This document shows, piece by piece, positions 3,770-29,424 of a DNA stretch of 64,000 nt. The translations under genes were made by a program, and so were the position numbers. The notes beneath the pieces were generated by a model that saw only the letters and a program-made list of their open reading frames with translations, was not told the DNA's origin and made no database searches. Position 1 is the stretch's first letter, and each line of letters starts with the position of its first letter. This DNA comes from Spirochaetia bacterium (GTDB lineage: Bacteria > Spirochaetota > Spirochaetia > SZUA-6 > Bin103): contig CBDBDQ010000005.1 in the NCBI GenBank assembly GCA_965203905.1, forward strand, positions 7,264,001 through 7,328,000, in the 5' to 3' direction.

Positions 3770-4761
3770 CGGTTGCTGCGCTCCATGCGAATGCGAGGAT
3801 CCACCCCCGCCAGCACCAGGTCGGAAACCAGGGTTCCGACCACGGTAAGCGCGCCGATGATCATCACCACGCTGCCGGCCAGGCTCATGTCCTGGAACAG
3901 CAGCGCACTGAAGAAGATCTGTCCGGTAGTGGGCAGCGACAGCACGATCGCGGTCACCGTCTCGCCCGAGAAGATCGCCGGCAGGATCCATGCCGCGGAG
4001 CTGATCACCGGGTTGAGCGCCACCCGCACCGGATACTTGAACAGCAGCCGCCCCTCCACCATCCCCTTGGCGCGGGCGGTGACCACGTACTGCCGGCGCA
4101 GCTCGTCCAGCAGGCTGGCGCGCACGATGCGGATCAGCTCCGCGGTGCCGGCGGTACCGATGACGAAGATCGGGATCGGCAGGTGCTTGAGCATGTCCCA
4201 CACCCGGCCGAGACTCCACGGCGCCGCCACGTACTCCGCCGAGAACAGGCCGGTCAGGCTGACCCCGAACCACTTCAGCAACAGCCACATCAGCACCAGC
4301 GCCAGCAGGAAGTTGGGCGTCGCCAGGCCGAAGAACCCGGTGAAGGTGAACAGGTAGTCGGCAACCGAGTACTGGCGCGTGGCGGAGAGAATGCCGATCG
4401 GGATCGAGACGGCGTAGATGAACAGCAGCGTGACGCTGGACAGCAGCAGGGTGGCGGGCAGCCGCTCGGCGATCAGGTCCGCCACCGCGCGGTTGTGCTG
4501 GAACGAGATGCCCATGTTGCCGCCCAGGAACTTGCCGAACCACTTGAAGTAGCGCACCACGATGGGCGAATCGAGGTCATACAGCCGCATCAGGCGGTCG
4601 ATCTCCGCCTGGTCGATGCGCACGCCGGTGTTGCGCAGGCGGGCGATGTGGACATCCAGGTAGTTGCCGGGGGGCAACTCGATGATGAGGAAGCCCACCA
4701 GCGAGAGGGCCAGCAGGAACAGCACCATGTAGAGCACGCGCCGCGCGAGGAACGGTACCAC
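3766..4761 (-). CDS. Dpp/Opp-type ABC permease (DppB-like)
   Basis: FLARRVLYMV N-terminus, YVVTARAKG, DLVLAGVDPRIR. Confidence 0.92.
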   Translation of the reverse strand: MVPFLARRVLYMVLFLLALSLVGFLIIELPPGNYLDVHIARLRNTGVRIDQAEIDRLMRLYDLDSPIVVRYFKWFGKFLGGNMGISFQHNRAVADLIAERLPATLLLSSVTLLFIYAVSIPIGILSATRQYSVADYLFTFTGFFGLATPNFLLALVLMWLLLKWFGVSLTGLFSAEYVAAPWSLGRVWDMLKHLPIPIFVIGTAGTAELIRIVRASLLDELRRQYVVTARAKGMVEGRLLFKYPVRVALNPVISSAAWILPAIFSGETVTAIVLSLPTTGQIFFSALLFQDMSLAGSVVMIIGALTVVGTLVSDLVLAGVDPRIRMERSNR

Positions 4762-4889
4762 TGGGAGCCTGTGTGCCGAATCGTAGCACAACGCGAGGGC
4801 TTGCGCGGCAGACCTGGGCGTGGCGGGCCGAGCCAGTACCATCCCATGCTGAACGACGTCTGCATCCCGTGTGGGCAAGGGAGGTGATG

Positions 4890-4916: not shown

Positions 4917-5265
4917 AGATCGCCGCCTTCAGGATGCGTGGTTCGTTCGCTGTACGATGTGTCCAGGAATGAGCGGGTTGCCGCCCACCGCAACGCCGGT
5001 CTCCGCCGCTGCGTTGCTGCCGCGTGGGCGCCGCGGTGCAGGATTCTGCAAAGAGCGCAAAAAATAGTGCTCTGAGCACTTGACGGGTTTGGCGCCGCTC
5101 ATAACGGCCCCCTGCCGCACGTTCCGGCCCCTCCTACCCTGCGAACATCCCGCCACGCCCTCCAGGCCCGTCAGCACCCCGTCAGCGCCGGCCTGAGCCC
5201 TTCCCGGTGCCGGTCCCGGGACTTGCCTAAACCTGGCATTTCTCAACCATGTTTATATTTACGCC

Positions 5266-6714: not shown

Positions 6715-6870
6715 TCGGCGCTCGGCAGGGTGCGGATTGGGCGGTTGGGTGTCGGTCCGATGGCAGCGGGAGCAACGGTTTGCCGGCTTGTCGCGCAGCG
6801 TGGGATAGTCCTGAGGCGGAGCCGGCCGCTACACTGCTGCGATGGATGCGGGTCAGGCGGAACGCATCGC

Positions 6871-7140
6871 CTGTGGCACCGGCAGCCGGCCGCGCGCTGG
6901 CTGGAGGCGCTGCGGGTAGGAAACGAACGGCTCGAGGCCATGGTATTGCACCTGCTGCCCGCCCTGCCGGCGGCGTGGCCCGATGGTGCCATGACCGGGC
7001 TGCGCGCGCGGGGCGGACTGCCGGCGGACCTGAAGTGGCGCGGCGGGCGACTGGTCGAGGCCGTTGCCGATGACCACGGCGCGATCCGCTTTCCGACCGC
7101 CGCGGGCGAGTCCTACCTGGTGCGCGCGCTGGGTGCTGCG
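6871..7140 (+). pseudogene. Collapsed GH95 alpha-L-fucosidase relic (N-terminus fused to C-terminus)
   Basis: LWHRQPAARWLEALRVGNERLEAMV (GH95 N-terminal motif) joined directly to LHLLPALPAAWPDGAMTGLRARGG (GH95 C-terminal motif). Confidence 0.75.
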
Positions 7141-15713: not shown

Positions 15714-17777
15714 CTAACGGCGGAAGTATTGCGCCGGGATGTGCGGGATCTGGTAGAAGGTGAAGTAGGTGGCGAAGCCCTTTGAGGCGACGTTGCCCAT
15801 GTCATTCCGGACCAGCGCCGGGTGCGGCAGGTCGCCGCCTACCGTGCCCACCATCCACAGGTTGTCGGCCCACAGCTCGCCGATCTGGTTGGCGATGGCA
15901 ACCCTGTCGTCCTCGCCCGCGGTCTGATTGAACTGCTCCGAGAGTTCGAAGAAGCGCAGCAGGTCCGGCTCCGTGCCGGCGGCGCGCAGCCCGGCGATGC
16001 CCTCGGCGAAGTAGACGTTGGCCAGCTCCTCGCTCCACCAGCCGAACGACGGCGGCGCCCACAATGAGCCGTCGAAGATGCTGTCGGGCAGCATGTCGAT
16101 CACGTGGCTGGCGATCATCACCTCGTCGGCGGAGCGCTTGCCGTCGAACGAGTTGTCCTCGCGGAAGTCGAAGTCGGTCTTGACGCCGACTGCCTCCCAG
16201 TAGTTCTTGACCAGCTCGGCGGTGGAGGTGATCGGCGTCTCCTGCTCGTGGTAGCCCTCGATCTTGACGAACAGCTCCTTGCCGTCGGGACGGCGGCGGA
16301 TGCCGTCGGCGCCCTTCTCCAGGCCCAGCTCGTCGAGGATGCGGTTGGCCTCGTCAGGGTCGTATTCGGCGTCACGCTGGAAGTGCTCGGGCACGTGGTA
16401 GATCGAACCCGGCGGCACCGCCGCCTGTGACGGGATGCCCTTGCCGAAGTAGAGCAGCTCGTTGATCTCCGCGCGGTTGATGGCCAGCGACAGGGCGCGG
16501 CGGAAGCGCTGGTCGCGCAGCAGGCCCTCGATCACCGGATCGGGCTTGTAGGTCTGGCGGAAGAAGTAGTTGACCCCGGCCCCGGCGCGCTTCTGCCACA
16601 GCCGCACGTCGTAGTTGCCGGCCTCGGCGTTCTGGGTCAGCACGGGAAAGTCCTCGATGGTCAGGATCGAGGCCACGAAGTCCACCTCGCCGCCCATCGC
16701 CGCGATCATGAACGACTCCTTGGTGGCGGCTGAGCGGTTCTGCACCCGGTCGAAGTAGGGGAGCTGGTTGCCGGCGATATCCACCTTCCAGTAGAACGGG
16801 TTGCGCTCCCACAGCGCGTAGTCGGTGGCCGCCTCCTGCAGCACCCACGCCTCCAGCACCGGGCGCCCGATGTCATCGGAGCTCTTGCCGTAGGGCCCCT
16901 GGCGGGCGTTGAACAACTGGGTCCAGTTCTCGAAGCCGCCCTCCTTGGCGAGCTCATTGGCCTTGTCGTTGTAGCCGATGTGGAACTGCGACAGGTAGTG
17001 CTTGGGCTCGGCGATGAACCCCATCGACCACATGTAGTGCGGCAGGGTGAGCTGGCGCAACGCGAAGTTGGGCAGCGGCGCCGCAAAGGTCAACTCGAAC
17101 GTGTGGTCGTCGATGCGGCGGCCCTGCGCCGGCGAGCCGCCGACGTTGAGACTGGTCGGCACCGACGGATGCAGCTCCTTGTTCATGTTCATGTCGTCGA
17201 ACCAGAAAGCCACGTCCTCGGCGTCGAACGAATCGCCGTCCGACCACTTCATGCCAGGGCGCAGGCGCAGGGTGATGGTGCGGTCGTCGGCCGACTGGTC
17301 CACCCCTAACAGCCAGTTGGGATACCAGGTCTTGGCATCGGGGCGCAGTTGCACCGGGGGATCCTCCAGCCAGTAGGCGGGGAACCACCACACTACCGGA
17401 CCGTCCATCACGGTGGTGTTCATCTGTCCGCCGTAGCTCCCGATCTGCTCGATCGGCACCACGATCAGCGGCTCGGCGGGCACCCGCTCCGCCACCGGCG
17501 GCAGGGCTCCGCTGCTCACCATCTGCGCCAGCATCGGCGCCTCGCTCAGGGCCGGCAGCGCGCGCCCGGTGGCGGACTGCAGCTCAGCGTGCGAGCCGTA
17601 GCTCCAGGGCCGTTGCGGCGTATCGGGCAACTCGGCGCCCGCGGTGTCGGCTGCGGCTGCTCCCGCGGCGGGCTGGTCGTCGCCCTCCTCCTGGGCTCCC
17701 GCCAGCACCAGGGCCGGCGCCAGCCAGATGACGGCGCTCACCATTGCAATCAAACGGATACCGGCACGGAAATGCAT
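15714..17777 (-). CDS. Family 5 (peptide/oligosaccharide) ABC substrate-binding protein
   Basis: EAPMLAQMVSSGALPPVAERVP, LRPGMKWSDG, ERNPFYWKVDIAGNQLPY. Confidence 0.92.
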   Translation of the reverse strand: MHFRAGIRLIAMVSAVIWLAPALVLAGAQEEGDDQPAAGAAAADTAGAELPDTPQRPWSYGSHAELQSATGRALPALSEAPMLAQMVSSGALPPVAERVPAEPLIVVPIEQIGSYGGQMNTTVMDGPVVWWFPAYWLEDPPVQLRPDAKTWYPNWLLGVDQSADDRTITLRLRPGMKWSDGDSFDAEDVAFWFDDMNMNKELHPSVPTSLNVGGSPAQGRRIDDHTFELTFAAPLPNFALRQLTLPHYMWSMGFIAEPKHYLSQFHIGYNDKANELAKEGGFENWTQLFNARQGPYGKSSDDIGRPVLEAWVLQEAATDYALWERNPFYWKVDIAGNQLPYFDRVQNRSAATKESFMIAAMGGEVDFVASILTIEDFPVLTQNAEAGNYDVRLWQKRAGAGVNYFFRQTYKPDPVIEGLLRDQRFRRALSLAINRAEINELLYFGKGIPSQAAVPPGSIYHVPEHFQRDAEYDPDEANRILDELGLEKGADGIRRRPDGKELFVKIEGYHEQETPITSTAELVKNYWEAVGVKTDFDFREDNSFDGKRSADEVMIASHVIDMLPDSIFDGSLWAPPSFGWWSEELANVYFAEGIAGLRAAGTEPDLLRFFELSEQFNQTAGEDDRVAIANQIGELWADNLWMVGTVGGDLPHPALVRNDMGNVASKGFATYFTFYQIPHIPAQYFRR

Positions 17778-18100
17778 AGAGTCCTCCTGGGATCGGTGAA
17801 GTTGCCGTTCACACTACCACCGCCGCGACAGGTGCTACAATGTGCCGCATGCACTCACCGCCACCGGGGGCTCGCCCCCTCGGCGCTCACGTCGGCCTTG
17901 TTTCGGATCGCTGTCGAGGTCATCGCATGGATCGCGTGCTGGCGGCAGGCGGAAATGCAGCCTATCATGGACCAATGGGACAGCGAGGCTTCCGTAACCT
18001 GCTCATTGTCGGAAGCCAGTTTGCGCACATGACCGCGCGTCGACGATGCGACATGGGAGTTCAACGCAGCCGTGTTCGCAGCCGTTTTAACGACTGAGCC

Positions 18101-19591
18101 ATGACCGCAGGTGCCAACCACGACTACTTGCTCGGTCTCGTGCGCGAGTTGTGCAAGTTACCGCATGAGACCGACTGGGTCGAGTTCAAGCTCAATCAGG
18201 ACACGCCGCAAGAGATCGGAGAGTACATTTCGGCGCTGGCCAATGCCGCGACTCTCCACGGCAAGGCCCAGGCCTACCTGCTGTGGGGAGTCGAGAACGG
18301 CACACATGCAATCGCTGGTACGGGTTTTTCTCCATCCAGTGCGAAGAAGGGAAATGAGCCCCTTGAGACCTGGCTGCTGCGCTTGCTGAGTCCTCGTATC
18401 GATTTCCGTTTCCACGAATTCCTCGTCGAAGAACGACGCGTCGTTCTCCTGGAGATCGACCGCGCTTCGCGACAGCCCGTGGCTTTCAGTGGTGACGAAT
18501 TCGTCAGGGTCGGTAGTACCAAGAGGAAGCTCAAGGACTATCCCGAGAAGGAACGGGCGTTGTGGCGCGTCTTCGACCGGGTGAGCTTCGAAGAAGGCAT
18601 AGCGGCCGAGCGGCTGAGTGGTGAGGAGGTCCTTACCAGACTCGACTATCCCGCGTACTTCGACCTACTTGATACGCCGCTGCCGGACGGCCACGCCGCT
18701 ATCCTCAATGTGCTCCAGCAAGATCGGTTGATCGCCCCCGGCCCGGCTGGCGGCTTCGACATCATGAATCTGGGTGCCATGCTGCTGGCCAGGAATCTCG
18801 CCGATTTTCGGTCGTTGCAACGCAAAGCCGTTCGAGTGATCGAGTACCGAGACTCGGGCCGCACCGAGACCTTAAAAGAGCGGGAAGGCTTCCGTGGCTA
18901 CGCAGCCGGCTTCCGAAACCTGCTCGGATACATCAACGCCAGACTGCCGGTAAGCGAGGTTATTGGTCAGGCCCTGCGCCAGACGATACCGGCATTCCCC
19001 GAGATCGCGGTACGAGAACTGGTGGCCAATGCCTTGATCCATCAGGATTTCCTGGCAACCGGCACCGGGCCGATGGTGGAGATTTTCCCAGGCCGCATCG
19101 AGATCACGAACCCCGGTGAACCACTGGTGGATACCGAACGCTTTCTCGATAGCCCCCCGCGGTCTCGAAACGAGGTTCTCGCCTCTCTCATGCGTCGCTT
19201 TCGGATCTGCGAGGAGCGCGGCAGCGGTATCGACAAGGTAGTATTCGAGATTGAACGCCACCAGCTTCCAGCGCCACTCTTCGAGACTCCTCCGAACTAC
19301 ACCCGGGTGGTGTTGTTCTCCCACAAGGCCCTGGCGGATATGGACAAGACGGAGCGTGAGAGGGCCTGCTATCTGCATGCCTGCCTGAAGTACGTACAGC
19401 GTGGGAGCATGACCAATACGTCGATTCGAGAGCGGTTCGGAATTGACGAGAAGAATCGTGCGATTGCGTCACGCCTGATCCGGGAGGCAGTGGAGGCGGG
19501 CCTCGTCTCCATCCGTCTCCCCGAGGCATCACCCAAGTACCGCGAGTACATACCGTTCTGGGCATCGCCAGAGCAGTCGAGAGCCCTCTAA
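18101..19591 (+). CDS. AlbA_2 (Schlafen-core) domain + HATPase_c_4 + C-terminal HTH protein
   Basis: ETDWVEFK, ISALAN, LLWGVEN, RELVANALIHQD, IEITNPG, SRNEVLASLMRRFRICEERGSG. Confidence 0.88.
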   Translation: MTAGANHDYLLGLVRELCKLPHETDWVEFKLNQDTPQEIGEYISALANAATLHGKAQAYLLWGVENGTHAIAGTGFSPSSAKKGNEPLETWLLRLLSPRIDFRFHEFLVEERRVVLLEIDRASRQPVAFSGDEFVRVGSTKRKLKDYPEKERALWRVFDRVSFEEGIAAERLSGEEVLTRLDYPAYFDLLDTPLPDGHAAILNVLQQDRLIAPGPAGGFDIMNLGAMLLARNLADFRSLQRKAVRVIEYRDSGRTETLKEREGFRGYAAGFRNLLGYINARLPVSEVIGQALRQTIPAFPEIAVRELVANALIHQDFLATGTGPMVEIFPGRIEITNPGEPLVDTERFLDSPPRSRNEVLASLMRRFRICEERGSGIDKVVFEIERHQLPAPLFETPPNYTRVVLFSHKALADMDKTERERACYLHACLKYVQRGSMTNTSIRERFGIDEKNRAIASRLIREAVEAGLVSIRLPEASPKYREYIPFWASPEQSRAL

Positions 19592-19600
19592 GCCCCGTCT

Positions 19601-19688
19601 CTACTTGACCGGTACCACTACCAGACCTTATAGGATATCTCCATATCATTACTGTATAATTAATTACGTTACTTGACGGGCACTTGAT
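19601..19688 (+). repeat. AT-rich ~87-bp site, copy 1 (TACTTGAC-N60-TACTTGACGGGCACTTGA)
   Basis: Aligns without gaps to 20412-20499. Confidence 0.7.
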
Positions 19689-19764
19689 CGAAGCCCACCG
19701 AACCTCAGTGTCAGGTCACACTCGAAGGTTGACCGACTCGCGAGTAATACTTAGTTTTACGGGC

Positions 19765-19992
19765 GTGACGAAGACCATTACCAGGATCGGTAACTCTCAA
19801 GGCATCATCTTCGACGTCGCGTTCATGGACCTGGCTCGTCTCAAGGTGGGAGACCAACTCGTCGTCACGGTCCACGAGGGCGGAACGATCACGCTGACGC
19901 CGGTTCACCCCGCCATCGAGGCCGAGAGGGCCAGTGCCACGGCGAAGCGCCTGATCGGCAAGAACGAGGAACTGTTCCGGCGCCTGTCGTGA
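19765..19992 (+). CDS. AbrB/MazE/SpoVT-family antitoxin
   Basis: KTITRIGNSQGIIFD...LKVGDQLVV...IGKNEELFRRLS; GTGA overlap with the Doc gene. Confidence 0.88.
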   Translation: MTKTITRIGNSQGIIFDVAFMDLARLKVGDQLVVTVHEGGTITLTPVHPAIEAERASATAKRLIGKNEELFRRLS

Positions 19993-20423
19993 GCGCCCGG
20001 CTCATCCATCCGACGGTCTCAGCGGTCAAGGCCATACACGTCGAGGTGCTCGCGGCCCACGGGGGCATGGAGGGACTGCGGGATGAAGCCCTGCTTGAGT
20101 CGGCGGTGGCGGCACCGCAGGCGACGATGTTCGGCAAGCCCTTGCTGGAGGACCCGATCGAGGTCGCGGCGGCGTACCTGTTCTACCTGTGCAACAACCA
20201 CCCCTTCATGGACGGCAACAAGCGGGTTGCACTGGCCACCTGCCTGGTCTTTCTGAGTGAGAACGGGCTGCTTCCCGCGGAGCAACTCGATCCGGACGCC
20301 TGGGAACGGCTGACGCTCGACGTGGCATCCGGTCAGCTCGACCGCGCCGAGACAGCCACTCGCCTTCGCCACCTGCTCGGCACAGCGACAAGTGTCCGGA
20401 CGACGCCGGTTTTACTTGACTGA
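19989..20423 (+). CDS. doc: Doc/Fic-family toxin
   Basis: GGMEGLRDEALLESAV, Fic motif HPFMDGNKR. Confidence 0.92.
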   Translation: MSARLIHPTVSAVKAIHVEVLAAHGGMEGLRDEALLESAVAAPQATMFGKPLLEDPIEVAAAYLFYLCNNHPFMDGNKRVALATCLVFLSENGLLPAEQLDPDAWERLTLDVASGQLDRAETATRLRHLLGTATSVRTTPVLLD

Positions 20424-20499
20424 GAGCCCATTCAGATCCTCAAGTAACATCGTATCTGTCTATCATATAACTGATTACGGTACTTGACGGGTACTTGAC
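20412..20499 (+). repeat. AT-rich ~87-bp site, copy 2 (TACTTGAC-N60-TACTTGACGGGTACTTGAC)
   Basis: Aligns without gaps to 19601-19688; spans the doc stop codon. Confidence 0.7.
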
Positions 20500-20623
20500 T
20501 GGCGCCGGCGCGAGAGTGCCGGAGCGGCGGCACCGGCGGCCCGTGTTTGACGCGGCCCGGTGGCCGTGCTAGCATCGCCGGAACCACCGGCAGCCTGCCG
20601 GACCACCGATAAGGAGTCTACTC

Positions 20624-22573
20624 GTGAAGCACTACCTGAACCTGGCACTCGCGCTGCTGGTGCTGCCCGCGATGCTGGCAGCGGCCGGCGGAGAGGGCGA
20701 GCAGTCGACCGCGGCATCCTCGGACAGCATGATGTCCGACTCGAAGTACAAGGAAGCCCCCATGCTGGCCGAACGGGTGGCCGCGGGCGAGCTGCCGCCG
20801 GTGGACGAGCGGCTGCCGGACGTCCCCGACGTGATCGAGCCGACCGCGGAGGTCGGCACCTACGGCGGCACCATCCAGCTCATCTCCAACCTGCCGGAGT
20901 CGTGGGGCGACGCGACGCAGTTCCTGCGGGCGTTCGTGATCGAGCGCTACATTCACGCCCCGTCGGAATTCTTCCCCGGCCTGGCGCTCGACTGGGACGC
21001 CGCCGAAGACGGCAAGAGCCTCACGCTCAACATCAGGCCCGGCCTGAAGTGGTCCGACGGCGAGCCGTTCGGCGCCGAGGACTTCCGCTTCATGTGGGAA
21101 GACATTCTCAAGCGCGACCCCAACTCGCAGATCCGCTCCTTCAACATCGGCAACTACGGCGGCGACATGGACATCACCGTGATCGACGACCTCACGGTGC
21201 GCTACGACTGGGAGGATGCGAACTACGCCAAGCCGATCTACTTCTCGCACTGGGGCGACTGGTACGGCAGCCAGCAGCACATCTACCAGGCTGCGCACAC
21301 CCTCAAGCAGTGGCACCTCGACTACAACGAGAAGGCCAATGAGCTGGCCAAGGAAGAAGGGTTCGAAAGCTGGATCCAGTTGATCGGGTCGAAGCTGATC
21401 CTCAACGGCACCATGACCCCCGACGTGCCCACCATGGGGCCCTACTTCGTCAAGGAGCTGCTCGCCGACGGCCATCTGCTGGAACGCAATCCCTACTACT
21501 ACCGGGTCGACAGCGCCGGCCAGCAGCTCCCCTACATCGACTACGCCCGCGGCACCTACCGCGCCGACAACGCATCGCGGGTGCTGGCCGTGATCGGCGG
21601 CGAGGTCGACTTCTGGGTCAGCCACCAGGCCTCGATCGAGGACTTCCCGGTGTTCAAGGAGAACGAGGACAAGGGCGGCTACAATGCCTTCCTGCTCGAC
21701 TCGGGCAAGCCGGCCAACATCAACATCCACGTCAACGGCACCTACGCCCCGGAGAACGAAGATCCCTTCCTGACCGAGCTGTTCCAGACCAAGGAGTTCC
21801 GCCAGGCGCTGTCGCTGGCCATCAACCGCCAGGAGATCGTGGACGTCGTCTTTCTCGGCAACGCCGAGCCGGTGCAGCAGACCTTCAACCGCACCGTGAG
21901 CAACTTCAAGGAGGAGTGGCTCCGGTCCTACGCCGAGTACGATCCCGACCAGGCCAACATGCTGCTCGACGGCATTGGCCTGAGCGACCGCGACGGCGAC
22001 GGCTTCCGGCTGCGGCCGGACGGCTCCAAGCTGGAGATCCTGTTCCAGGTGCCGCAGCAGTTGGCGCCCAACGTGGCGGCCAGCGAGCTGATCACCAAGT
22101 ACTGGCAGGACGTGGGGCTGCGCATCCTGCTGCAGGTGCAGGACATCGGCATCGTGGTCGACCACCTGCGCAACTCCACCTATCAGCTCAGCAGCTTCGG
22201 CAACGAGTGGGGCGGCGACATCTTCTACGTGATGTTCGGCTACGCCACCTGGAACACCTGGGCCGGAGCCCAGAAGTACTGGCAGTGGAACCGCGACAAC
22301 TCGACCGGCTGGGAGCCTCCGCAAATCTGGAAAGACATCTTCGAGGCGGAGAGCCGGCGCCAGAAGGTGCCGATGGAGCAGGTGCTGGAAGATGCCACCT
22401 GGATCCTGGACTGGCACGCCGAGAACCTGCTCACCATCGGCGTCGCCGGGTACGCCAAGGCGCCCGGGATCGTCAAGCAGAATCTGGTCAACACCAACCC
22501 CGACGTGCACGACATCTGGGAATGGGACCGGATCAACGCCCACCGGCCCTACCAGTGGTTCTTCAAGAACTGA
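20624..22573 (+). CDS. Family 5 ABC substrate-binding protein
   Basis: AAGGAG RBS, YKEAPMLAERVAAGELPPVDERLP, GLKWSDG, RNPYYYRVDSAGQQLPYID. Confidence 0.92.
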   Translation: MKHYLNLALALLVLPAMLAAAGGEGEQSTAASSDSMMSDSKYKEAPMLAERVAAGELPPVDERLPDVPDVIEPTAEVGTYGGTIQLISNLPESWGDATQFLRAFVIERYIHAPSEFFPGLALDWDAAEDGKSLTLNIRPGLKWSDGEPFGAEDFRFMWEDILKRDPNSQIRSFNIGNYGGDMDITVIDDLTVRYDWEDANYAKPIYFSHWGDWYGSQQHIYQAAHTLKQWHLDYNEKANELAKEEGFESWIQLIGSKLILNGTMTPDVPTMGPYFVKELLADGHLLERNPYYYRVDSAGQQLPYIDYARGTYRADNASRVLAVIGGEVDFWVSHQASIEDFPVFKENEDKGGYNAFLLDSGKPANINIHVNGTYAPENEDPFLTELFQTKEFRQALSLAINRQEIVDVVFLGNAEPVQQTFNRTVSNFKEEWLRSYAEYDPDQANMLLDGIGLSDRDGDGFRLRPDGSKLEILFQVPQQLAPNVAASELITKYWQDVGLRILLQVQDIGIVVDHLRNSTYQLSSFGNEWGGDIFYVMFGYATWNTWAGAQKYWQWNRDNSTGWEPPQIWKDIFEAESRRQKVPMEQVLEDATWILDWHAENLLTIGVAGYAKAPGIVKQNLVNTNPDVHDIWEWDRINAHRPYQWFFKN

Positions 22574-22670
22574 CGCCGGCGGCTCGTCTCGAGGTGGGTG
22601 CCGGGCGCGGTTGAAGCAAGGAGCAACGCGCCAGCCGAGATGCAGCGCCGCTCGATTGCAGCAGACACAC

Positions 22671-22708
22671 GGGGTGTAGCCCGCTTGCGCATTGAGCGGG
22701 CGCACCCC
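22671..22708 (+). promoter_or_regulatory. Intercistronic stem-loop after the SBP gene (mRNA stabiliser or attenuator)
   Basis: GGGGTG-ta-GCCCGCT...AGCGGGC-g-CACCCC. Confidence 0.5.
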
Positions 22709-22735
22709 TGATTTCAGCGGAAGCAGGGTACCGGC

Positions 22736-23728
22736 ATGGTCTCCTACATCCTTCAGCGGCTGGCCTACATGGTGGTGCTCCTGCTGATGCTGTCGGTGGC
22801 GGCCTTCGTCATCATCGAGCTGCCCACCGGCGATGCGCTGAGCACCCAGCTCGCCGGCCTGGCGCTGCGCGGCACTCCCGATGCCGAGCAGCAGATCGAG
22901 ACCATGCGCCGCTTCTACGGGCTCGACCGACCCGGCCACGAACGCTACTTCGTGTGGCTGGGCAACCTGCTGCGGGGGGATCTCGGGAACTCGTTCCACC
23001 ACATGGTGCCCAACACCAAGCTGATCGGTGAGCGACTCCCCGGGACCGTGATCATCTCGATCACCACGCTGCTGTTCACCTACGTCGTCGGCATCGCCAT
23101 CGGCATCTACTCGGCCACCCACCAGTACTCGTTCGGCGACTACTCGGCGACGGTGTTCGGCTTCGTCGGCATGGCGACGCCCAACTTCATCCTCGCCCTG
23201 GTGCTGCTCTACCTGGCCTACGTCTGGTTCGGCGAGAGCCTGCTGGGGCTGTTCTCGCGCAAGTACGCGGATGCTCCGTGGAGCCTGGCCAAGGTGTGGG
23301 ACCTGCTGAAGCACCTGCCGGTGCCGATCATCGTCATCGGCACCGCCGGCACCGCGGGCCTGATCCGGACCCTGCGCGCCACGCTCCTGGACGAGCTGGG
23401 CAGGCAGTACGTGATCACCGCCCGCGCCAAGGGACTGGCGGAACGGCGCCTGACCTTCAAGTACCCGGTGCGGGTGGCGCTCAACCCGATCGTCAGCGGG
23501 CTCGGCGGCGTGTTCGCCACCATCGTGTCCGGTGAGGCGATCACCAGCATCGTGCTCAGCCTGCCGACCACCGGCTCGCTCCTGCTGGTGGCACTGACCA
23601 GCCAGGACACCTACCTGGCGGGAAGCATCGTCATGGTGTTGAGCGCCCTGACGATCGTCGGGTTCCTGGTCTCCGATCTGACCCTGGCGGCCGTGGATCC
23701 GCGGATCCGCCTGGAGCGGGCACAGTAA
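22736..23728 (+). CDS. Dpp/Opp-type ABC permease (DppB-like)
   Basis: YILQRL, YVITARAKG, VDPRIR; close paralog of 3766-4761. Confidence 0.93.
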   Translation: MVSYILQRLAYMVVLLLMLSVAAFVIIELPTGDALSTQLAGLALRGTPDAEQQIETMRRFYGLDRPGHERYFVWLGNLLRGDLGNSFHHMVPNTKLIGERLPGTVIISITTLLFTYVVGIAIGIYSATHQYSFGDYSATVFGFVGMATPNFILALVLLYLAYVWFGESLLGLFSRKYADAPWSLAKVWDLLKHLPVPIIVIGTAGTAGLIRTLRATLLDELGRQYVITARAKGLAERRLTFKYPVRVALNPIVSGLGGVFATIVSGEAITSIVLSLPTTGSLLLVALTSQDTYLAGSIVMVLSALTIVGFLVSDLTLAAVDPRIRLERAQ

Positions 23729-24846
23729 TGGCCAACACGGCCGGCGGGGCTACCGTGGAGGAACGCAGCGAGCGCTACTACCTCGCCACCCAGTGGCAGC
23801 TCATGGCCGCCAAGTTCCGCAGCCACAAGCTGGCCCGGTTCGGTGCGGGCGTGCTGATCGCATTCTACCTCGCGGCGTTGTTCGCGGAGTTCGTCGCCAC
23901 CGAGGACATGGCCCTCATGTACACCGAGACCCCGCACGCACCGCCACGCCGCATCCACCTGTTCGACGAGAACGGCTCGCTGCGCAGCCCGTTCGTGTAC
24001 GCGTTCATCCAGGCACGCAACCAGGAGACGCTGCGCATGGAGTACCAGGAGGACCGCTCGCGGAGCTACCGGGTGCGCCTGTTCGTTGCCGGCGACCCGT
24101 ACCGGATGTGGGGACTGTTCGACGCCAGCGTCCACCTGTTCGGCATCGAAGAGGAGCCGCTCTACCTGTTCGGCAGCGACCGGCTCGGGCGCGACATGTT
24201 TTCCCGCATCGTCTACGCGTCGCGCATCAGCATGACCATCGGCCTGGTAGGCGTGGCGATCAGCTTCGTGCTCGGCACCATCATCGGCGGCATCTCCGGC
24301 TATTTCGGCGGTGCGGTCGACATGATCGCGCAACGGGTCATCGAGTTCCTGCTGTCGATTCCGACCATCCCGGTGTGGATGGCGCTGAGCGCGGCGGTGC
24401 CGCTGAACTGGCCGCCGCTGCGGGTCTACTTCGCCATCACGGTGGTGCTCTCGATCATCGGCTGGACCGGCCTGGCCCGGATCGTGCGCGGCAAGCTGAT
24501 CAGCTTGCGCGAAGAGGACTTCGTGGCCGCGGCCCGCATCGCCGGCTGCCGGGAGATGCGGATCATCAACCGGCACCTGATCCCGTCGTTCATCAGTTAC
24601 CTGATCGTGCACCTTACCCTGGCGATCCCCGGTATGATCCTGGGCGAGACCGCGCTCAGCTTCCTCGGCCTGGGCCTGCGGCCGCCGACGGTGAGCTGGG
24701 GCGTGCTGCTGCAGGACGCGATGAACATCCAGGCGGTGGCGATCTACCCCTGGCTGCTGCTGCCGGTGCTGTTCGTGATCGTGTTCGTGCTCTGTTTCAA
24801 TTTCTTCGGCGACGGGTTGCGCGACGCGGCCGACCCCTACCGCTGA
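23728..24846 (+). CDS. Dpp/Opp-type ABC permease (DppC-like)
   Basis: FGSDRLGRDMFSR, GDGLRDAADPY; paralog of 2660-3769. Confidence 0.93.
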   Translation: MANTAGGATVEERSERYYLATQWQLMAAKFRSHKLARFGAGVLIAFYLAALFAEFVATEDMALMYTETPHAPPRRIHLFDENGSLRSPFVYAFIQARNQETLRMEYQEDRSRSYRVRLFVAGDPYRMWGLFDASVHLFGIEEEPLYLFGSDRLGRDMFSRIVYASRISMTIGLVGVAISFVLGTIIGGISGYFGGAVDMIAQRVIEFLLSIPTIPVWMALSAAVPLNWPPLRVYFAITVVLSIIGWTGLARIVRGKLISLREEDFVAAARIAGCREMRIINRHLIPSFISYLIVHLTLAIPGMILGETALSFLGLGLRPPTVSWGVLLQDAMNIQAVAIYPWLLLPVLFVIVFVLCFNFFGDGLRDAADPYR

Positions 24847-24868
24847 GCGATCGCTCAAGGAGGCAGCG

Positions 24869-25702
24869 ATGGAGTTCATACCCCTTACCGACGTGCAGCA
24901 GCGCTCGTTCGACGAGCATGGCTTCGTGGTGGTGCGCAACGCCATCGACGCGGACGTGGTGCAGCGGCTGACCGCCGCGGGCGACCGCTTCATGGAGACC
25001 GCGGGACCGGTCCACAACTTCTACGCCAACCGCTACATCGACATGTGGTACGACGACACCCTGCTGGGCCTGGCCACCAATCCGCGCATCCTGCCGCTGA
25101 TCGTGCAGCTCCTGTCGCCGGGCATCCAGCTCACGCGCACCCACATCATCTACAAGCACCCGCAGCCGCGCTCGGACGATCCGCTGTACCCGGACGGCGA
25201 CGGACGCTCGTTCCGCAACTGGCACCGCGACCTGAACAACTTCGCGCCCAACCATCCAATCCGCGGCACCGTGTCGATCCGGGTCGGCTACTGTCTGACC
25301 GACTTCACCGAGCCTTGTTCGGGTGTAACCCTGCTGGTCCCCGGCAGCCACCGCCTGGTGGAGCAGATACGGATTCCCAAGGGATCGTTGGATCCGACGG
25401 GCTACGTGGAGCTGCCGCTGCAGCCGGGCGACGCCTACCTGTTCAGCAGCTCCTGCTACCACTTCCCCGCGCTCAACTTTCAGCGCAGCCCGGCCAAGGG
25501 CATCCTGGTGACCTACGCCTACCGCTGGTGGAGCCACCGTCACCCGCGCCCCGCGGACGAGCTGCTGGAGACGCTGGATCCGATTGCCCGCCAACTCTTC
25601 GGCGACGCCCCCGACGACGAGGAACAGCTCCCGCTGCGTCACTGGGCGCGCGAGCACGGCCTGCCCAACGCCGAGGTCCCGCCGATGCGGATCTTCGTGT
25701 AG
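24869..25702 (+). CDS. Phytanoyl-CoA dioxygenase (PhyH) family protein
   Basis: FDEHGFVVV, WHRD, LVPGSH, PGDAYLF...YH. Confidence 0.88.
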   Translation: MEFIPLTDVQQRSFDEHGFVVVRNAIDADVVQRLTAAGDRFMETAGPVHNFYANRYIDMWYDDTLLGLATNPRILPLIVQLLSPGIQLTRTHIIYKHPQPRSDDPLYPDGDGRSFRNWHRDLNNFAPNHPIRGTVSIRVGYCLTDFTEPCSGVTLLVPGSHRLVEQIRIPKGSLDPTGYVELPLQPGDAYLFSSSCYHFPALNFQRSPAKGILVTYAYRWWSHRHPRPADELLETLDPIARQLFGDAPDDEEQLPLRHWAREHGLPNAEVPPMRIFV

Positions 25703-27868
25703 GTGGCGGGCGCGTACTACCGGGACGATGAACGGCGGCGGGTGCTCGGCAACGGGCGCTGCCGGATCGTGTGGACCCGGAACGGAGATGGGGGCGCGGC
25801 GGTCGGCAGGTGCAGCGAGTACCAGATCCGGGCCGCGGACGGCTGGGAGACCCTGGCGCGTGGCGGGCTGCCCGACTCCGGCCCGGTGCAGGTGGTGGCG
25901 CAACTCGCCGAAGGGGTGTTTGCCGACCGCGACTTCGAGCGCCAGTTCCGCACCACCGGCATGTGGCGGGACGGACCGATGCAGTTCACCTACCCGCACC
26001 AGGTCCTGCACCGCGCCGGCGCCGCCGAGTGCAAGCCGGTCGAGACCGCCGACGGGGCCAAGGAAGTGTGCTGGCGGTATACGCTCGGGGCCGGCGGGGA
26101 GTGGCAGGTGGAGAGCCGCCACACCGTGTGGGCCGACTCCCCGCACGTCCTGGAGCGGGTGCGCGTTACCCGCGGCGCCGCCGGCGGTCCCGTGCGGGTG
26201 CGCTGCGCCTGGCACGTGGAGCACATCCCGCCGGAACTGACCAGCAGCTCGATCAAGGCGGTCACCCACGCCGGCTGGCGCCTGCCCGCCGGGACCTTCC
26301 TGGTGCTGGCCCAGCAGGTGGACGCCCGCCGCTGGACCCCGCTGTCGGGCGGCGGTGGCATGGTCAACCTCACGCTGGGCGACCGCAGCGGCGATCCGCA
26401 GCAGTACATCGACGGCAAGTACCAGGTCTCGCCGCGGCAGGCGCTGCTGCACCAGGCACCGCCCTGCATGGACAGCCAGGGCTGGCTGGAGCTGCGCCCC
26501 GGCGACAGCTACGAGCTGGCCCACTACGTGATCATGCACCCCGAGTACCCGTTCACGCGCTCCTTCATCGATTACCTGCACTGCCTGCAGCCGCAGGAGT
26601 ACCTGCCGCCGCGCTATCCGTGGAGCCACTTCATCGCCAAGTGCAGCTGGACCCTGCGCCACACCCCGAACGGCTACGAGGACGGCGGCGACTGGGGCCT
26701 CTACTGGAAGAACTGGTACAACCTCACCGCGGATCCGCGCTGCCCGAAGACGGGCATCGAGAAGGTGCACAGCCTCGACTGGGGGGCCTCGTGGGACATC
26801 TGGACCGCCTGCTTCCTGCTGCTCTACGCGGAGCGCTACGACGACGCGTGGAGCCGTGAGCGCTACACCCGGCTGCGCAACGCCATCGTCGACCTGCCGT
26901 GGCAGATCGACGATCCCGCCTCGCCGGTGGACGGCGCCTACTGGATGGAGCGCGACGAGCACGGCGACTTCCACATCTCCAACTGGATGGCGAACCGCTA
27001 CAGCCCCAGGACGCTGTGGGTGTGCGACGCCGGCAAGGTGGGCTATTTCCTGTGTCTGCTGTACGAGAAGACCGGCGACGCGGTGCTGCTGCAGCGGGCG
27101 CGCAAGGCGGCGGCCTTCCTGCTGCGCCGCCAGCAGGCCGACGGCGACCTGGACTGCAGCGTGATGCTGCAGGAGGGGACCGCGATCTGGCCCTCCAACC
27201 TCGGCGGCGTGACCTGCGCCGTGCTGCTGTGGGCGAAGCTGTACGCCGTCACCGGTGAGCTGCGCTACCTGGAGGCGGCGCGGCGGGCGGCGGCCTTCTC
27301 TCACCGCGCCTGGCTGTCGAACGACCGCTGGCAGATGCACGGCGGCGAGATCGACTCCTTCGGCCTGCCCGACTCCACCACCGCCATGTACGCGACCATG
27401 GGCTACGCCGCGCTCGCCCTCGCCGGCGGCGAGGAAGCGCACCGGGCGATGACCCGCGACGCCGCCAACTACCTGGTGGCGCAGCAGTGGCTGTTCGACA
27501 TCAACTACGGCTACTACCGCAAGGAGGCGCGCTGGAACGGAATGGACTGCAAGACCGTGGGCGCGCTGCAGGGCTGGATACGGCCCGAGTGCACCATGTG
27601 CATGTACCTGGCCTTCAAGGCCACCGGCGACCCGCGGTACCGTTACAGCATGGAGCAGCACGCGGCCTGGATGACCTACATGCAGTACGACAACCCGGAC
27701 AGCCCCAGAACCTTCGGCGGCGGCCACGAGGTGTTCGAGGTGCCGGCCGACCAGATCAACGGCTTCGGCTCCAACTTCTGGCCGGAGACCGTGGGCCAGG
27801 CGGTCGCCATGCTGCTGCTGATGGCCGACGACGAAGCGCAGGAGGGACAATGGAACAGCATTCGATAG
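25703..27868 (+). CDS. Uncharacterised protein with C-terminal alpha/alpha-toroid (six-hairpin glycosidase-like) domain
   Basis: LYEKTGDAVLLQRARKAAAFL, LYAVTGELRYLEAARRAA, AFKATGDPRY helical-hairpin repeats. Confidence 0.65.
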   Translation: MAGAYYRDDERRRVLGNGRCRIVWTRNGDGGAAVGRCSEYQIRAADGWETLARGGLPDSGPVQVVAQLAEGVFADRDFERQFRTTGMWRDGPMQFTYPHQVLHRAGAAECKPVETADGAKEVCWRYTLGAGGEWQVESRHTVWADSPHVLERVRVTRGAAGGPVRVRCAWHVEHIPPELTSSSIKAVTHAGWRLPAGTFLVLAQQVDARRWTPLSGGGGMVNLTLGDRSGDPQQYIDGKYQVSPRQALLHQAPPCMDSQGWLELRPGDSYELAHYVIMHPEYPFTRSFIDYLHCLQPQEYLPPRYPWSHFIAKCSWTLRHTPNGYEDGGDWGLYWKNWYNLTADPRCPKTGIEKVHSLDWGASWDIWTACFLLLYAERYDDAWSRERYTRLRNAIVDLPWQIDDPASPVDGAYWMERDEHGDFHISNWMANRYSPRTLWVCDAGKVGYFLCLLYEKTGDAVLLQRARKAAAFLLRRQQADGDLDCSVMLQEGTAIWPSNLGGVTCAVLLWAKLYAVTGELRYLEAARRAAAFSHRAWLSNDRWQMHGGEIDSFGLPDSTTAMYATMGYAALALAGGEEAHRAMTRDAANYLVAQQWLFDINYGYYRKEARWNGMDCKTVGALQGWIRPECTMCMYLAFKATGDPRYRYSMEQHAAWMTYMQYDNPDSPRTFGGGHEVFEVPADQINGFGSNFWPETVGQAVAMLLLMADDEAQEGQWNSIR

Positions 27869-29424
27869 TGCCCGAAGTGACGCGCACCGGCGGCCGGCTG
27901 CACGACCCCGCGGCGCGCCCGCGGGTGGCGATCGGTGCCATCTTCACCGAGTGCAACCACCTCGGCGGCGCCCCGATCGACCGCTCCTGGTACGAGCGCT
28001 ACGAGCTGCTGCGCGGCGAGGAGCTGCTGGCCGGCGCCACCGGGGCGGTGGCCGGCATGCTGGGCGTGCTGCGCGAGCGGTACCTGGCGCCGGTGCCGCT
28101 GCTGTACGCCAGCACCTGCGCCGGCGGCCCGCTCACCAGGGACACCTACGAGGAACTGAAGGGCGAGATTCTCGGGCGGCTGCAGGCGGCGCTGCCGGTG
28201 GACGGCGTGTTGCTGCCGTTGCACGGCGCCGCGGCTGCCGAGCACGTGGGCGACCCCGAGGGCGATCTGATCGGTGCGGTGCGCGCGCTGGTGGGCGCGG
28301 ACACGCCGGTGGTGGCCAGCCTCGACCTGCACGCCCACGTCACCGCGGCGATGGTGGGCGGGGCCGACGCCCTGGTGGCCTGGGAGACCTACCCCCACCG
28401 CGACGCCGTCTCCACCGGGCAGCGCGCCGCGCGGCTGCTGGCCGACGCCGTGGCCGGGCGCTGCCGGCCCACCATGGCGCTGGCCAAGGTGCCGGTGGTG
28501 ACCGGCGCGACCAACGGCTCCACCGAGGGCGCCGGCCCGTTCGCCGACCTGATGCGCCGCGCCAAGGCGCTGGAGGAGAATGCCGGCGTGCTGTCCACCA
28601 GCATGTTCCTGGTGCACCCCTACCTCGATCTGCCCGACATGGGCAGCGGCGCGCTGGTGGTCACCGACGCCGACCCGGAACGCGCGGCGCAGCTCGCCAC
28701 CGAACTAGCGGAGGAGTACTGGCAGCGCCGCGCCGAGCTGGAGCCGGAGGTCCACACCCCCGAACAGGCGGTGGCCGCCGGGCTGCAAGTGGAGGGCACG
28801 GTGCTGCTGGTGGAGACCGCCGATTGCTGCGGCGGCGGCGCCGCCGGCGACAGCGCGGCTTCCCTCAAGGCGCTGCTGGAGGCCGCCCTGCCCGGCCCCG
28901 CCCTGGTGCCGGTGGTGGATCCGGCGGCGGCGCGCGCCTGCCACGACGCCGGCGCCGGGAACCCCGTCACCGTGGCCGTGGGCCACGCGCTCGATCCACA
29001 GTGGGGCGAGCCGGTCACCGTGACCGGCCGCGTGCTGCGCCTCGGCGACGGCGGCTTCCGCTACCGCGGCGGCATCTGGGACGGCGTGGAAGGCGCCATG
29101 GGCCCGAGCGCCGTGCTCGAAGTCCCCTCCCGCGGCGGTCCCGGCGCCGTGCGCATCCTGCTGGCCACCCACGCCACCTACGACTGGGCCGACGAGCAGT
29201 TCCGCTCCGTGGACCTCGACCCGGCCGAGGCCAAGTTCATCGTCGCCAAGAATCCGATGAACTACCACCTTGCCTACTCGCCCATCGCCGCCGCCACCTA
29301 CATCCTGGACACCCCCGGCCCCACCCCGGCCACCGTTCGCAACGTCCCCTTCCGCAACCTGCAGCGCCCCTGGTTCCCCGCCGACCCCGACATCCCCAAC
29401 CTGCGCCCCACCCTCCTCACGTAG
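27850..29424 (+). CDS. M81/MlrC-family metallopeptidase
   Basis: [38 protein letters not shown]. Confidence 0.9.

Follow-up and report, generated by a model that had tools for sequence, protein, structure and literature searches.

A candidate multi-site operator of phased 11-bp words linked to an AlbA_2/GHKL-like/winged-helix gene

The C proteins of type II restriction-modification (R-M) systems are Xre-type helix-turn-helix dimers of about 80 to 100 residues, whose inverted-repeat C-boxes lie upstream of their own gene. Winged helices of the OmpR/PhoB type bind tandem 11-bp direct repeats, such as the pho boxes. The parC locus of plasmid R1 has a promoter with a set of 11-bp direct repeats on each side; its DNA-binding protein, ParR, is a small ribbon-helix-helix protein, and ParM is the motor. 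Phased direct repeats with AT-rich DNA near the gene of the binding protein are a feature of iteron origins as well as of R1 parC. Regulators of the BrxR/CapW type (WYL), which belong to defence islands, recognize inverted repeats that precede their own gene. To our knowledge, the transcriptional control of type I restriction is poorly understood.

The locus considered here lies in a window of 64,000 nucleotides (C5:7264001-7328000, the whole stretch that was analysed) of the 8-Mb genome of a Spirochaetia bacterium. It contains two sites of about 87 bp, each of which is probably one unit of a cis element that belongs to the neighbouring AlbA_2/GHKL/winged-helix gene and serves as its cognate multi-site operator. 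Such a cis element is not described in the literature searched, which included PMC10561277 and PMC7641849 apart from their supplementary tables.

Two repeat units and the gene pair between them

The original prediction described the two sites correctly when checked against the sequence. TACTTGAC is indeed present at 19602, 19670, 20413 and 20481, with an extra copy at 20492 (Table 1). The claimed 68-bp spacing is found in both sites, and the second copy continues as GGGCACTTGA in site 1 and as GGGTACTTGA in site 2. Both sites keep CAGA and the block TATAAyTrATTACG, an inverted TCAAGTA is present at 20440, site 1 begins 10 bp past the stop codon of the AlbA_2 gene (TAA, 19589-19591), and the doc stop codon (TGA, 20421-20423) falls within site 2. 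Aligned without gaps, the two sites are identical at 56/90 positions; their G+C content is 42-44%, compared with about 57-78% in the rest of the window. The five exact matches to TACTTGAC in the window, all within the two sites, exceed the 0.58 expected, and 0/100 shuffles gave five. Similarly, the 18-mer TACTTGACGGGYACTTGA occurs twice with an expectation of 0.04.

Table 1. Features of the locus, in window coordinates
Feature	Position	Strand	Remarks
AlbA_2 gene	18101..19591	+	496 aa: Schlafen/AlbA_2 (N-terminal), GHKL-like HATPase_c_4, winged helix-turn-helix (C-terminal)
Repeat unit 1	19602..19688	+	5' word, AT-rich spacer, 3' word pair
Words of unit 1	19602-19609; 19670-19677; 19681-19688		TACTTGAC; TACTTGAC; CACTTGAT; last two 11 bp apart
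Inserted TA segment	19705..20380	+	in inter-unit spacer; left edge approximate
TA promoter/operator	19729..19760	+	TTGACC, then palindrome GTAATACTTAGTTTTAC
MazE/AbrB-type antitoxin (doc partner)	19765..19992	+	GTG start
Doc (Fic-fold) toxin	19989..20423	+	Pfam Fic 4.4e-17; NCBIfam DOC_P1 8.1e-10
Repeat unit 2	20413..20499	+	5' word, AT-rich spacer, 3' word pair
Words of unit 2	20413-20420; 20481-20488; 20492-20499		TACTTGAC at all three

Over the whole genome, TACTTGAC has 93 matches, with 79 expected from composition, and clusters of it within 150 bp occur at the two sites only. No further genomic copies came from short-query blastn, nhmmer or a scan for clusters of the exact motif; with a two-copy profile, nhmmer reported nothing below E = 1 in the whole genome beyond the two sites. 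A match to the 18-mer with two mismatches lies at C5:5885192. Rfam has nothing for 19400-20700 with E values up to 1. Folding of site 1 and of site 2 as single-stranded DNA, each on both strands and with DNA parameters only, gave no significant hairpin (z of -0.28, +0.37, -1.33 and -0.67 relative to 200 shuffles). A promoter consensus scan of 17700-20700 found none inside the sites, its sole promoter-like match being at 20547-20575, upstream of the SBP gene.

Known kinds of recombination site were considered and rejected. An integron attC site forms a single-stranded hairpin from imperfect inverted repeats (R''-L''/L'-R'); here the hairpin is missing, since the single-stranded folds are not significant. 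As for the GTTRRRY core at the cassette boundary, reading of the sites shows a single word-adjacent GTT, in GTTACTT (19668-19674), where a C stands in place of an R. An IntI-type recombinase would be expected to match PF00589, which has 28 matches in the genome and none in C5:7264001-7328000. Of an XerCD dif/pdif site, a 28-bp sequence whose inverted 11-bp arms enclose a 6-bp spacer, there is, again by reading, just a TAA-N4-TTA dyad, which is lost in the relative G007 (AAATGAATTA), and the conserved elements are direct repeats.

A toxin-antitoxin (TA) pair lies between the units. Its antitoxin matches Pfam MazE_antitoxin (8.2e-5) and NCBIfam doc_partner (2.2e-7), both below the cut-off. In the loci of 6 relatives with TA homologs, the match is confined to a stretch running from window position 19726 or 19744 to 20357 or 20379. 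The TA promoter/operator is kept in 5/5 aligned TA copies, in loci without a nearby site. Both flanks of the TA segment, window 20381-20412 included, are homologous to the 50 bp that separate units A and B in the relative G004, and the last 14 or so codons of doc are encoded by array spacer and the first word of unit 2. By these sequence comparisons the MazE/Doc operon (0.65 kb, with its own promoter) is a secondary insertion in the spacer between two tandem units. Insertion into a tandem operator array is one way to arrive at the order gene, site, TA pair, site with no cassette machinery. A crossover between the near-identical 3' word pairs could excise the TA insertion again.

The TA pair has its own conserved palindrome and word pairs are present at 0/6 TA-homolog loci, so the site was rejected as a type II TA operator. 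The same count speaks against the claim that such sites close each TA or defence unit; they are tied instead to the AlbA_2 gene. The contigs of four runs (X1-X4) show several low-depth or short-sided joints, for example 17845>19728 (side 28) and 20381>20482 in X3.

Linkage to the AlbA_2 gene and architecture of the element

The site lies 3' of the AlbA_2 gene in 9/10 family loci, with or without a TA pair. In relatives, the gene is followed by one to three tandem units with no TA pair: one in G007, G011, G020 and G018, two in G004 and G010, and three in G009 and G012. In G001 the site after the AlbA_2 gene is truncated. Unit 1 has unit A of G004 and the only unit of G007 as its orthologs; the ortholog of unit 2 is unit B of G004, TGAGA following the 5' word and TGG the last word in both. 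The unit of G006 is a hybrid, A at its 5' end and B at its 3' end.

This linkage extends over many phyla. Among the best 80 of 556 relatives, 69/80 orthologous loci carry 11-bp-phased words just 3' of the AlbA_2 stop codon, defined as three or more word copies in the 400 bp that follow the stop, with one or more pairs spaced by 11 bp. By the same definition, words were found in 4/78 upstream control regions and in 4/68 control regions lying 1.5 kb downstream. At least two word pairs are present in 48/80 loci (best 80 of 556), as opposed to 0/78 and 0/68 of the controls. The 11/80 loci with no word signal, again among the best 80 of 556, include L035 and L094, which have less than 140 bp of downstream sequence each. 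The first word frequently overlaps the AlbA_2 stop codon.

The AlbA_2 gene and the element travel together as a single block. Between G000 and G007, only window 18094-19687 is held in common and the flanks are unrelated; in close pairs (n = 9), the end of homology is no more than about 7 bp from the last word. The block is found on 63 plasmid records, the sampled loci lying otherwise in complete chromosomes. In L047 and L050 a unit is split by about 300 bp of non-coding DNA, and of the best 80 of 556 loci, scanned over their whole length, this locus is the only one with a gene between units.

The word itself is 11 bp long, with the consensus TRNTTGAYGGK, in which position 9 (G/T) is G in 98% of units. 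A unit consists of one to four 5' words, an AT-rich spacer and two or three closing 3' words, and the word clusters lie 66, 77, 88 or 99 bp apart. Measured in the best 80 of 556 loci between the last 5' word and the first 3' word, the separations have their peaks at 66 (17 cases), 67-68 (11), 76-79 (32), 88 (10) and 98-99 bp (3). Spacer length thus varies by 11-bp steps, and A/T content within the spacer rises about every 10.5 bp, with peaks at 20-21, 31-32, 40-42, 51-53 and 62-64 bp, counted from the 5' word. Position profiles of the spacer contain no position-conserved -10 or -35 element and no TAnnnT signature; thus, a promoter internal to the spacer lacks support.

A common setting of the element is a type I R-M operon, with the layout hsdM-hsdS-AlbA_2 gene-element-hsdR, in which the element is the entire gap before hsdR. 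The downstream gene product is HsdR in 27/80 loci (best 80 of 556; assigned by clustering, with one representative checked in Pfam), and the upstream one is HsdS-like in 23 of the best 80 of 556 loci (three checked in Pfam). The start of hsdR is 3-23 bp past the last word in 18/26 loci, and in 10/26 the last word lies 12-13 bp before that start, fused with a GGAG-type ribosome-binding site. The phased architecture directly before hsdR implies a wrapped multi-protomer complex. Among the neighbours in the sampled loci are HsdR, a PLD-SNF2 helicase, HsdM and patatin. In the present genome, gene and element are an orphan, with no R-M genes. Here, as in G007 and G004, a convergent gene or TA pair follows the element, and there is no obvious target gene. 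A position 3' of its own gene is unusual for an operator.

The AlbA_2 protein and its covariation with the words

The AlbA_2/HATPase_c_4/winged-helix family, which we take to be COG2865, is widespread, and we know of no function for it. Orthologs of the AlbA_2 gene product are 56-73% identical over many phyla and one archaeon (best 80 of 556 relatives), which implies frequent transfer of the gene. Pfam recognizes SLFN_AlbA_2 (9.3e-18) and HATPase_c_4 (2e-23) in the protein and no other families, NCBIfam has no match for it, and PADLOC yields weak partial matches only, to Aga_SIR2-PNTD models at about 1e-5. The AF2 model (pLDDT 87) contains helices at residues 416-432, 439-446 and 453-465 and wing strands at 469-471 and 483-485. 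Fold matches are to 3lmm, to the N-domains of SLFN13, SLFN11 and SLFN14, and to the CA domains of histidine kinases.

The variable bases of the word covary with residues of the winged helix that are predicted to contact DNA. The columns most informative on these bases are all within residues 454-483; the top five covarying columns are 479, 436, 471, 441 and 478. In the AF2 winged helix the covarying residues fall in helix 2, at the beginning of the recognition helix and in the wing. Across 34 edge-disjoint sequence pairs from the best 80 of 556 relatives, residue 479 has changed in 18/20 different-word pairs versus 2/14 same-word pairs (p = 1.3e-5 over 489 columns), different-word pairs being also more diverged overall (tree distance 0.56 versus 0.36). 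On starred branches, with test columns picked after the informative-column result had been seen, word TAC goes with Pro479 in 7.5/8 independent pairs and never the reverse (p = 0.008), and A/G at word position -1 is paired with Lys454 in 6.5/7 (p = 0.03). Of the four residue-base tests, two fell short of significance (p = 0.25), as did control columns 253, 204 and 387, which are 3 of 6 controls (the others being 54, 158 and 239). The coding region of the winged helix adjoins the element, and a recombination event that swapped the two jointly would give the same association without any contact.

An operator, its alternatives and known systems

From the sequences we infer both that the protein binds the element and that this has a regulatory outcome. 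Several copies of the protein would bind the words through their C-terminal winged helices, on the same face of the DNA, and the bound proteins might bend or loop the AT-rich spacer. Binding of several copies to the words would make the element a multi-site operator. Since the element takes up the interval ahead of hsdR, its last word touching the ribosome-binding site of that gene, it most likely controls the downstream defence gene, either by activation or by blocking. A multi-site operator for the AlbA_2-HTH protein had been offered as the alternative in the original prediction, and linkage, phasing and covariation all favour it, while the cassette recombination system that it put forward as its main interpretation has not stood. 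With the operator, the AlbA_2/HATPase_c_4/winged-helix family would gain a candidate DNA target, the conserved-core 11-bp word, whose variable triplet tracks residues of the wing and the recognition helix. If true, this also gives a bacterial Schlafen relative a defined nucleic-acid partner, and if the element gates hsdR expression, it would constitute a controller mechanism for type I restriction.

It is very unlikely that a new cassette system recombines at these sites, with a recombinase acting in trans that moves defence and TA cassettes in and out between them. Such a system would account for the layout of gene, site, TA pair and site, for the two sites of G004 with only 50 bp between them, for the one site in G007 and in G006 with its hybrid unit, and for the units of L047 and L050 interrupted by non-coding DNA. 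However, the sites occur only after the AlbA_2 gene, never after other defence or TA genes, and the further copies predicted to follow such genes in this genome did not appear in profile and motif scans; the gene between units is peculiar to this locus among the best 80 of 556. The motif is thus the homologous 3' flank of a single gene family, a finding named beforehand as one that would refute the idea, and the cassette inference fails. In addition, the conserved parts are direct repeats and not inverted arms around a crossover spacer, no hairpin is significant, G007 does not retain the TAA-N4-TTA dyad, and the TA junctions fall in the inter-unit spacer, not inside words. No tyrosine recombinase lies nearby either: the window has no Phage_integrase match, and the nearest of the 28 in the genome is about 600 kb away. 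Loci with one site or without the TA pair do exist as anticipated (one site in G007 and G006, two without a TA pair in G004), but ordinary recombination between near-identical 3' word pairs is enough to produce these patterns. A joint of site 1 to site 2 is present in no contig of 4 runs, contigs being blind to rare forms.

Other readings assign the element a different role beside the same protein. The AlbA_2 protein could be an enzyme, a Schlafen nuclease with a GHKL ATPase, aimed by its winged helix, that cuts or recombines the array, so that the module moves and becomes a hotspot of gene capture and loss. Although the sharp boundaries of the shared block at unrelated chromosomal places, the spread of 56-73% identical orthologs over many phyla and an archaeon with the frequent transfer that this implies, the resemblance of the N-domain to SLFN nucleases, and a variable array that takes up insertions and is found on plasmid records would fit, this is unlikely. 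Sharp boundaries may merely reflect conserved functional DNA beside non-conserved flanks, the loss of a unit in G006 is explained by a crossover inside 20 bp of near-identity, and the module is mostly at a fixed place in type I R-M operons. That gene and array make up a self-mobilising gene-capture platform, with the enzyme in cis, the TA pair as a captured passenger and no relation to tyrosine or serine recombinases, is quite improbable. We give a similarly small chance to the element acting as RNA, the words lying in the 3' UTR of AlbA_2 and the 5' UTR of the next gene and the AlbA_2 domain controlling hsdR translation: in 10/26 loci the last word, 12-13 bp ahead of the start of hsdR, does run into a GGAG-type ribosome-binding site, the first word is often over the stop codon, and Schlafen domains act on RNA (to judge from the titles of the fold matches), but 11-nt phasing, 11-bp spacer steps and A/T periodicity of about 10.5 bp are properties of double-helical DNA, covariation is in the winged helix and not in the AlbA_2 domain, and there is neither an Rfam match nor a stable fold (DNA parameters only). 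Phased direct repeats around AT-rich DNA beside the gene of a likely binding protein, in tandem arrays of one to four units, would also suit an integrated element's iteron-type origin of replication, with the AlbA_2 protein as initiator, or its centromere-like partition site, to which that protein binds. This is extremely unlikely, given that the loci are part of complete chromosomes and of type I R-M operons, with one locus in this genome, and that the adjacent protein matches only AlbA_2 and HATPase_c_4 in Pfam and no Rep family.

Several described systems share features with the proposed operator. Like attC or pdif sites, the repeated sites bracket a small TA module, and gene plus site form a compact, promoterless-looking unit; unlike them, they have no hairpin inverted repeat and no 11-6-11 dyad, no integrase or Xer gene is nearby, and one gene family only is involved. 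PDB 3lmm (DIP2311 of Corynebacterium diphtheriae, a structural-genomics entry titled uncharacterized protein) shares the three-domain family (Foldseek E = 4e-20; phmmer E = 8e-4) and differs in carrying neither a function nor a DNA site. With ParR-parC the element has in common 11-bp repeats in two clusters, in one helical register and beside the gene of the binding protein, a likeness that by analogy would imply a cooperative, wrapped nucleoprotein complex; in contrast, no partition genes were seen in the window, and the loci lie in chromosomes as well as plasmids. As with BrxR/CapW regulators, the regulator gene accompanies diverse defence systems, although the protein family differs. The winged helix and the repeats in 11-bp register, with a conserved core and variable flanks, resemble OmpR/PhoB systems, whereas the AlbA_2 protein is without a receiver domain, the element is 3' of the regulator gene, and 66-99 bp of phased AT-rich DNA separates its two word clusters. 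Finally, unlike a C protein, the regulator has 496 residues with Schlafen-like and GHKL-like domains, at least four direct repeats lie downstream of its gene, and the system is of type I. As with C proteins and their C-boxes, however, the gene of the putative regulator is inside an R-M operon just before the restriction gene and its proposed operator adjoins it, an arrangement that, by analogy, would let restriction trail methylation.

The units and the gene they follow

Reading the region confirmed the sequence details of the original prediction exactly. The two stretches of about 87 bp align without gaps, with 56 of 90 positions identical, and both have a G+C content of 42-44% within a window that otherwise ranges from about 57 to 78%. 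TACTTGAC occurs five times in the 64 kb versus 0.58 expected (five are reached in none of 100 shuffles), and the 18-mer TACTTGACGGGYACTTGA twice versus 0.04. The two-site observation is real and non-random. Across the whole 8-Mb genome, TACTTGAC is not enriched (93 copies versus 79 predicted from composition) and clusters only at the two sites. An nhmmer search with the two-copy profile finds no further site below E = 1; neither search yields the additional genomic copies that had been expected.

Features of the locus and of related loci (plain coordinates, window; C5, the contig of the window)
Feature	Position	Remarks
AlbA_2 gene	18101-19591	496-aa protein; SLFN_AlbA_2 and HATPase_c_4 domains
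Unit 1	19602-19688
Unit 2	20413-20499
TACTTGAC	19602, 19670, 20413, 20481, 20492
MazE/AbrB-type antitoxin	19765-19992
Doc	19989-20423
Family-5 solute-binding protein (SBP) genes		both flanks of block
Promoter-like TTGACG-17-TAGCAT, upstream TG	20547-20575	precedes downstream SBP gene, outside unit 2
Match to toxin-antitoxin (TA) homologs	19726/19744 to 20357/20379
TA insertion	about 19705-20380
Spacer-like stretch	20381-20412	homologous to right part of G004 inter-unit spacer
Doc tail	20381-20423	last ~14 codons: array spacer plus first word of unit 2
Variant in run X3	20381-20482	doc 3' end to 3' word pair of unit 2
Stretch in common with G007	18094-19687	gene plus one unit
ACGACTGAGCC	18090-18100	just 5' of AlbA_2 start codon
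ACGACTGAGCC, recurrence	C5:5327710-5327722	stop codon of sulfatase-like gene
'Empty' version of G007 location	C5:5327.7-5328.7 kb
Absent from G009 junction	17766-27909	~10 kb: AlbA_2/TA block and ABC-transporter operon
Partial AlbA_2 paralog (L112)	C5:5077394-5078373	79% DNA identity
Truncated AlbA_2 copy (L114)	G001:C1:4441426-4448500
Tandem AlbA_2/HATPase_c_4 genes (L027)	5158-6957	also in L088
Non-coding insert (L050)	4593-4885	also in L047

Relatives were covered by a DNA search of 60 genomes and the family by a pattern search, after which 3' flanks were read. Every good copy of the double word lies directly 3' of an AlbA_2 ortholog. Within the family, one unit follows the gene in G007, which lacks the TA, and in G011, G018 and G020; two follow it in G010 and in G004, where they are 50 bp apart and the TA is again lacking; and three in G009 and G012. 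The words are TGTTTGAC / TGCTTGAC in G009, G010 and G012, and TAGTTGAC / AAGTTGAC in G018 and G020, where the first word overlaps the stop codon. The unit is truncated in G001; G006 has a single unit, preceded by what remains of the gene, its last ~30 codons. The site goes with the AlbA_2 gene rather than the TA: the predicted placement after stop codons of variable TA or defence genes failed, with word pairs at 0 of 6 TA-homolog loci.

Two incomplete copies of the gene were also seen. The partial paralog of this genome has a single TACTTGAC word 13 bp past its stop codon, then unrelated sequence. The truncated G001 copy, missing its first ~140 codons and retaining only the first word, has a copy of an SCP2-like gene end on either side; downstream are ORFs, named by eye, for a Phd/YefM-like protein, a 646-aa rve-type transposase-like protein and an AAA ATPase.

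Phasing and genomic context across phyla

The cross-phylum sample comprised 80 orthologs (the best 80 of 556; 56-73% identical) from Latescibacterota, Nitrospirota, Acidobacteriota, Chloroflexota, Pseudomonadota, Planctomycetota, other phyla and one archaeal MAG. A motif-blind test sought any 8-mer that recurs 11 bp further on with no more than one mismatch and is present in three or more copies. Among these best 80, the 400 bp after the stop codon were positive in 69, with at least two pairs in 48; the upstream control was positive in 4 of 78 and the control 1.5 kb downstream in 4 of 68, with two or more pairs in 0/78 and 0/68. The element is family-wide across phyla. Its 11-mer consensus is T-R-N-T-T-G-A-Y-(G/T)-G-K, with a triplet that varies across the sample (TAC in 21 loci, TGT in 18, TAT in 13, TAA in 9, and others). 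Distances between the last 5' word and the first 3' word cluster at 66-68, 76-79, 88-90 and 98-99 bp, in steps of 11, and A/T content between the word clusters peaks about every 10.5 bp. Such phasing is a property of double-helical DNA bent and bound on one face. L088 has further word pairs on the upstream side, at positions -1546 and -3037 relative to the stop codon of the gene.

By clustering, with Pfam on one representative, the downstream gene is HsdR in 27 of these best 80 loci; others, again from one representative each, include PLD-SNF2 helicase, HsdM, a second AlbA_2 gene, patatin, pentapeptide-repeat protein and DUF1638. The preceding gene is HsdS-like in 23 of 80 (Methylase_S confirmed on three). 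The first word starts from 4 bp before to about 25 bp after the stop codon, and in 18 of 26 loci hsdR starts 3-23 bp past the last word, usually preceded by a GGAG-like stretch. Because the words adjoin both the stop codon and the hsdR start, the element fills the entire gap. Position profiles across loci and a promoter scan of this region found no position-fixed -10 or -35 signal; the predicted complex may activate an internal promoter or block read-through. The module is also found on plasmids (63 records), with a complete unit on one enterobacterial plasmid.

Covariation of the word with the winged helix

In the AF2 model of the 496-aa protein (pLDDT 87), the C-terminal end is a canonical winged helix (helices 416-432, 439-446 and 453-465; wing strands 469-471 and 483-485), and the remainder resembles 3lmm, Schlafen N-domains and histidine-kinase ATP-binding domains. 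The columns most informative on word positions -2 and -1 all fall within residues 454-483. A tree built on residues 1-440 only implies at least 35 word changes and gave 34 edge-disjoint pairs. At residue 479 a difference is seen in 18 of 20 different-word pairs versus 2 of 14 same-word pairs (p = 1.3e-5; 489 columns tested), the former being somewhat more divergent overall; the next columns are 436, 471, 441 and 478. Residues 451-485 differ by 0.44 in different-word versus 0.18 in same-word pairs, and residues 1-300 by 0.28 versus 0.21.

In independent-pair sign tests, on columns chosen after inspecting the most informative ones, word TAC goes with Pro479 (7.5 of 8 pairs the same way, 0 the other; p = 0.008) and A or G at -1 with Lys454 (6.5 of 7, 0; p = 0.03). 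G at -2 gave p = 0.25 both with T/S/A at 479 (2.9 of 8, 0.1) and with Leu461 (2.9 of 8, 0). Three of six control columns (253, 204 and 387) had no significant association. Because the winged-helix codons directly adjoin the element, co-transfer of the two could mimic contact.

History of the locus and nature of the element

Unit 1 matches the first G004 unit (A): in both, CGGT follows the 5' word and TCGA the last one. Unit 2 matches the second (B), the same places being taken by TGAGA and TGG, and the spacer-like stretch matches the G004 spacer. The array therefore had its two units before the TA segment was inserted into the inter-unit spacer. TA homologs elsewhere in relatives carry their own conserved TTGAC promoter and a GTAAAACTTAGTTTTAC palindrome. 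The Doc ORF now runs on through spacer DNA to a TGA inside unit 2, and lacks the native 3' end of other doc copies.

Outside their common stretch, the flanks in G007 and this genome are unrelated, and in nine close pairs homology ends no more than about 7 bp from the last word. The insertion place of G007, G004 and G006 has an 'empty' counterpart in this genome, marked by the sulfatase-like gene; CTGAGCC precedes the ATG in G007, as here, and the ACGACTGAGCC repeat may reflect the way in which the module moved. In G009 the left-flank SBP ortholog abuts a homolog of window 27910-29003, and therefore ~10 kb is absent from that junction.

The original prediction read the sites as candidate novel cassette recombination sites. 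A single-site relative without the TA does exist, in G007. The G006 unit resembles A at the 5' end, and over 28 nt at the 3' end it is identical to B, which fits a crossover within near-identical 3' word pairs; the same crossover here would delete the TA. Yet a scan of the best 80 of 556 loci over their full length shows a gene between units only here. In L050 and L047, about 300 bp without a convincing ORF, which may be a small mobile element, separates the two 3' words of unit 1, and downstream come a second complete unit and hsdR. Single-strand folding gave no significant hairpin, Rfam gave no family match for the site region, the expected tyrosine recombinase is absent from the 64-kb window, and no contig of four public runs joins unit 1 to unit 2. 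Contigs of relatives in runs X3 and X4 keep the order gene-unit 1-TA and doc-unit 2 as here; one X3 contig (depth 9.6, side 37) lacks ~100 bp or has other sequence in its place, possibly a strain variant of unit 2. Recombination sites are thus unsupported.

The alternative offered alongside, a multi-site operator for the AlbA_2-HTH protein, is supported by gene linkage, 11-bp phasing and winged-helix covariation; both binding and a regulatory outcome are inferred. No published description of the cis element was found in the literature searched, supplements aside. The element is best described as a phased operator with multiple sites, the predicted cognate of a Schlafen-like/GHKL/winged-helix protein. 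In this genome it is orphaned, duplicated and interrupted by the TA operon; its normal place is before hsdR in type I R-M operons.
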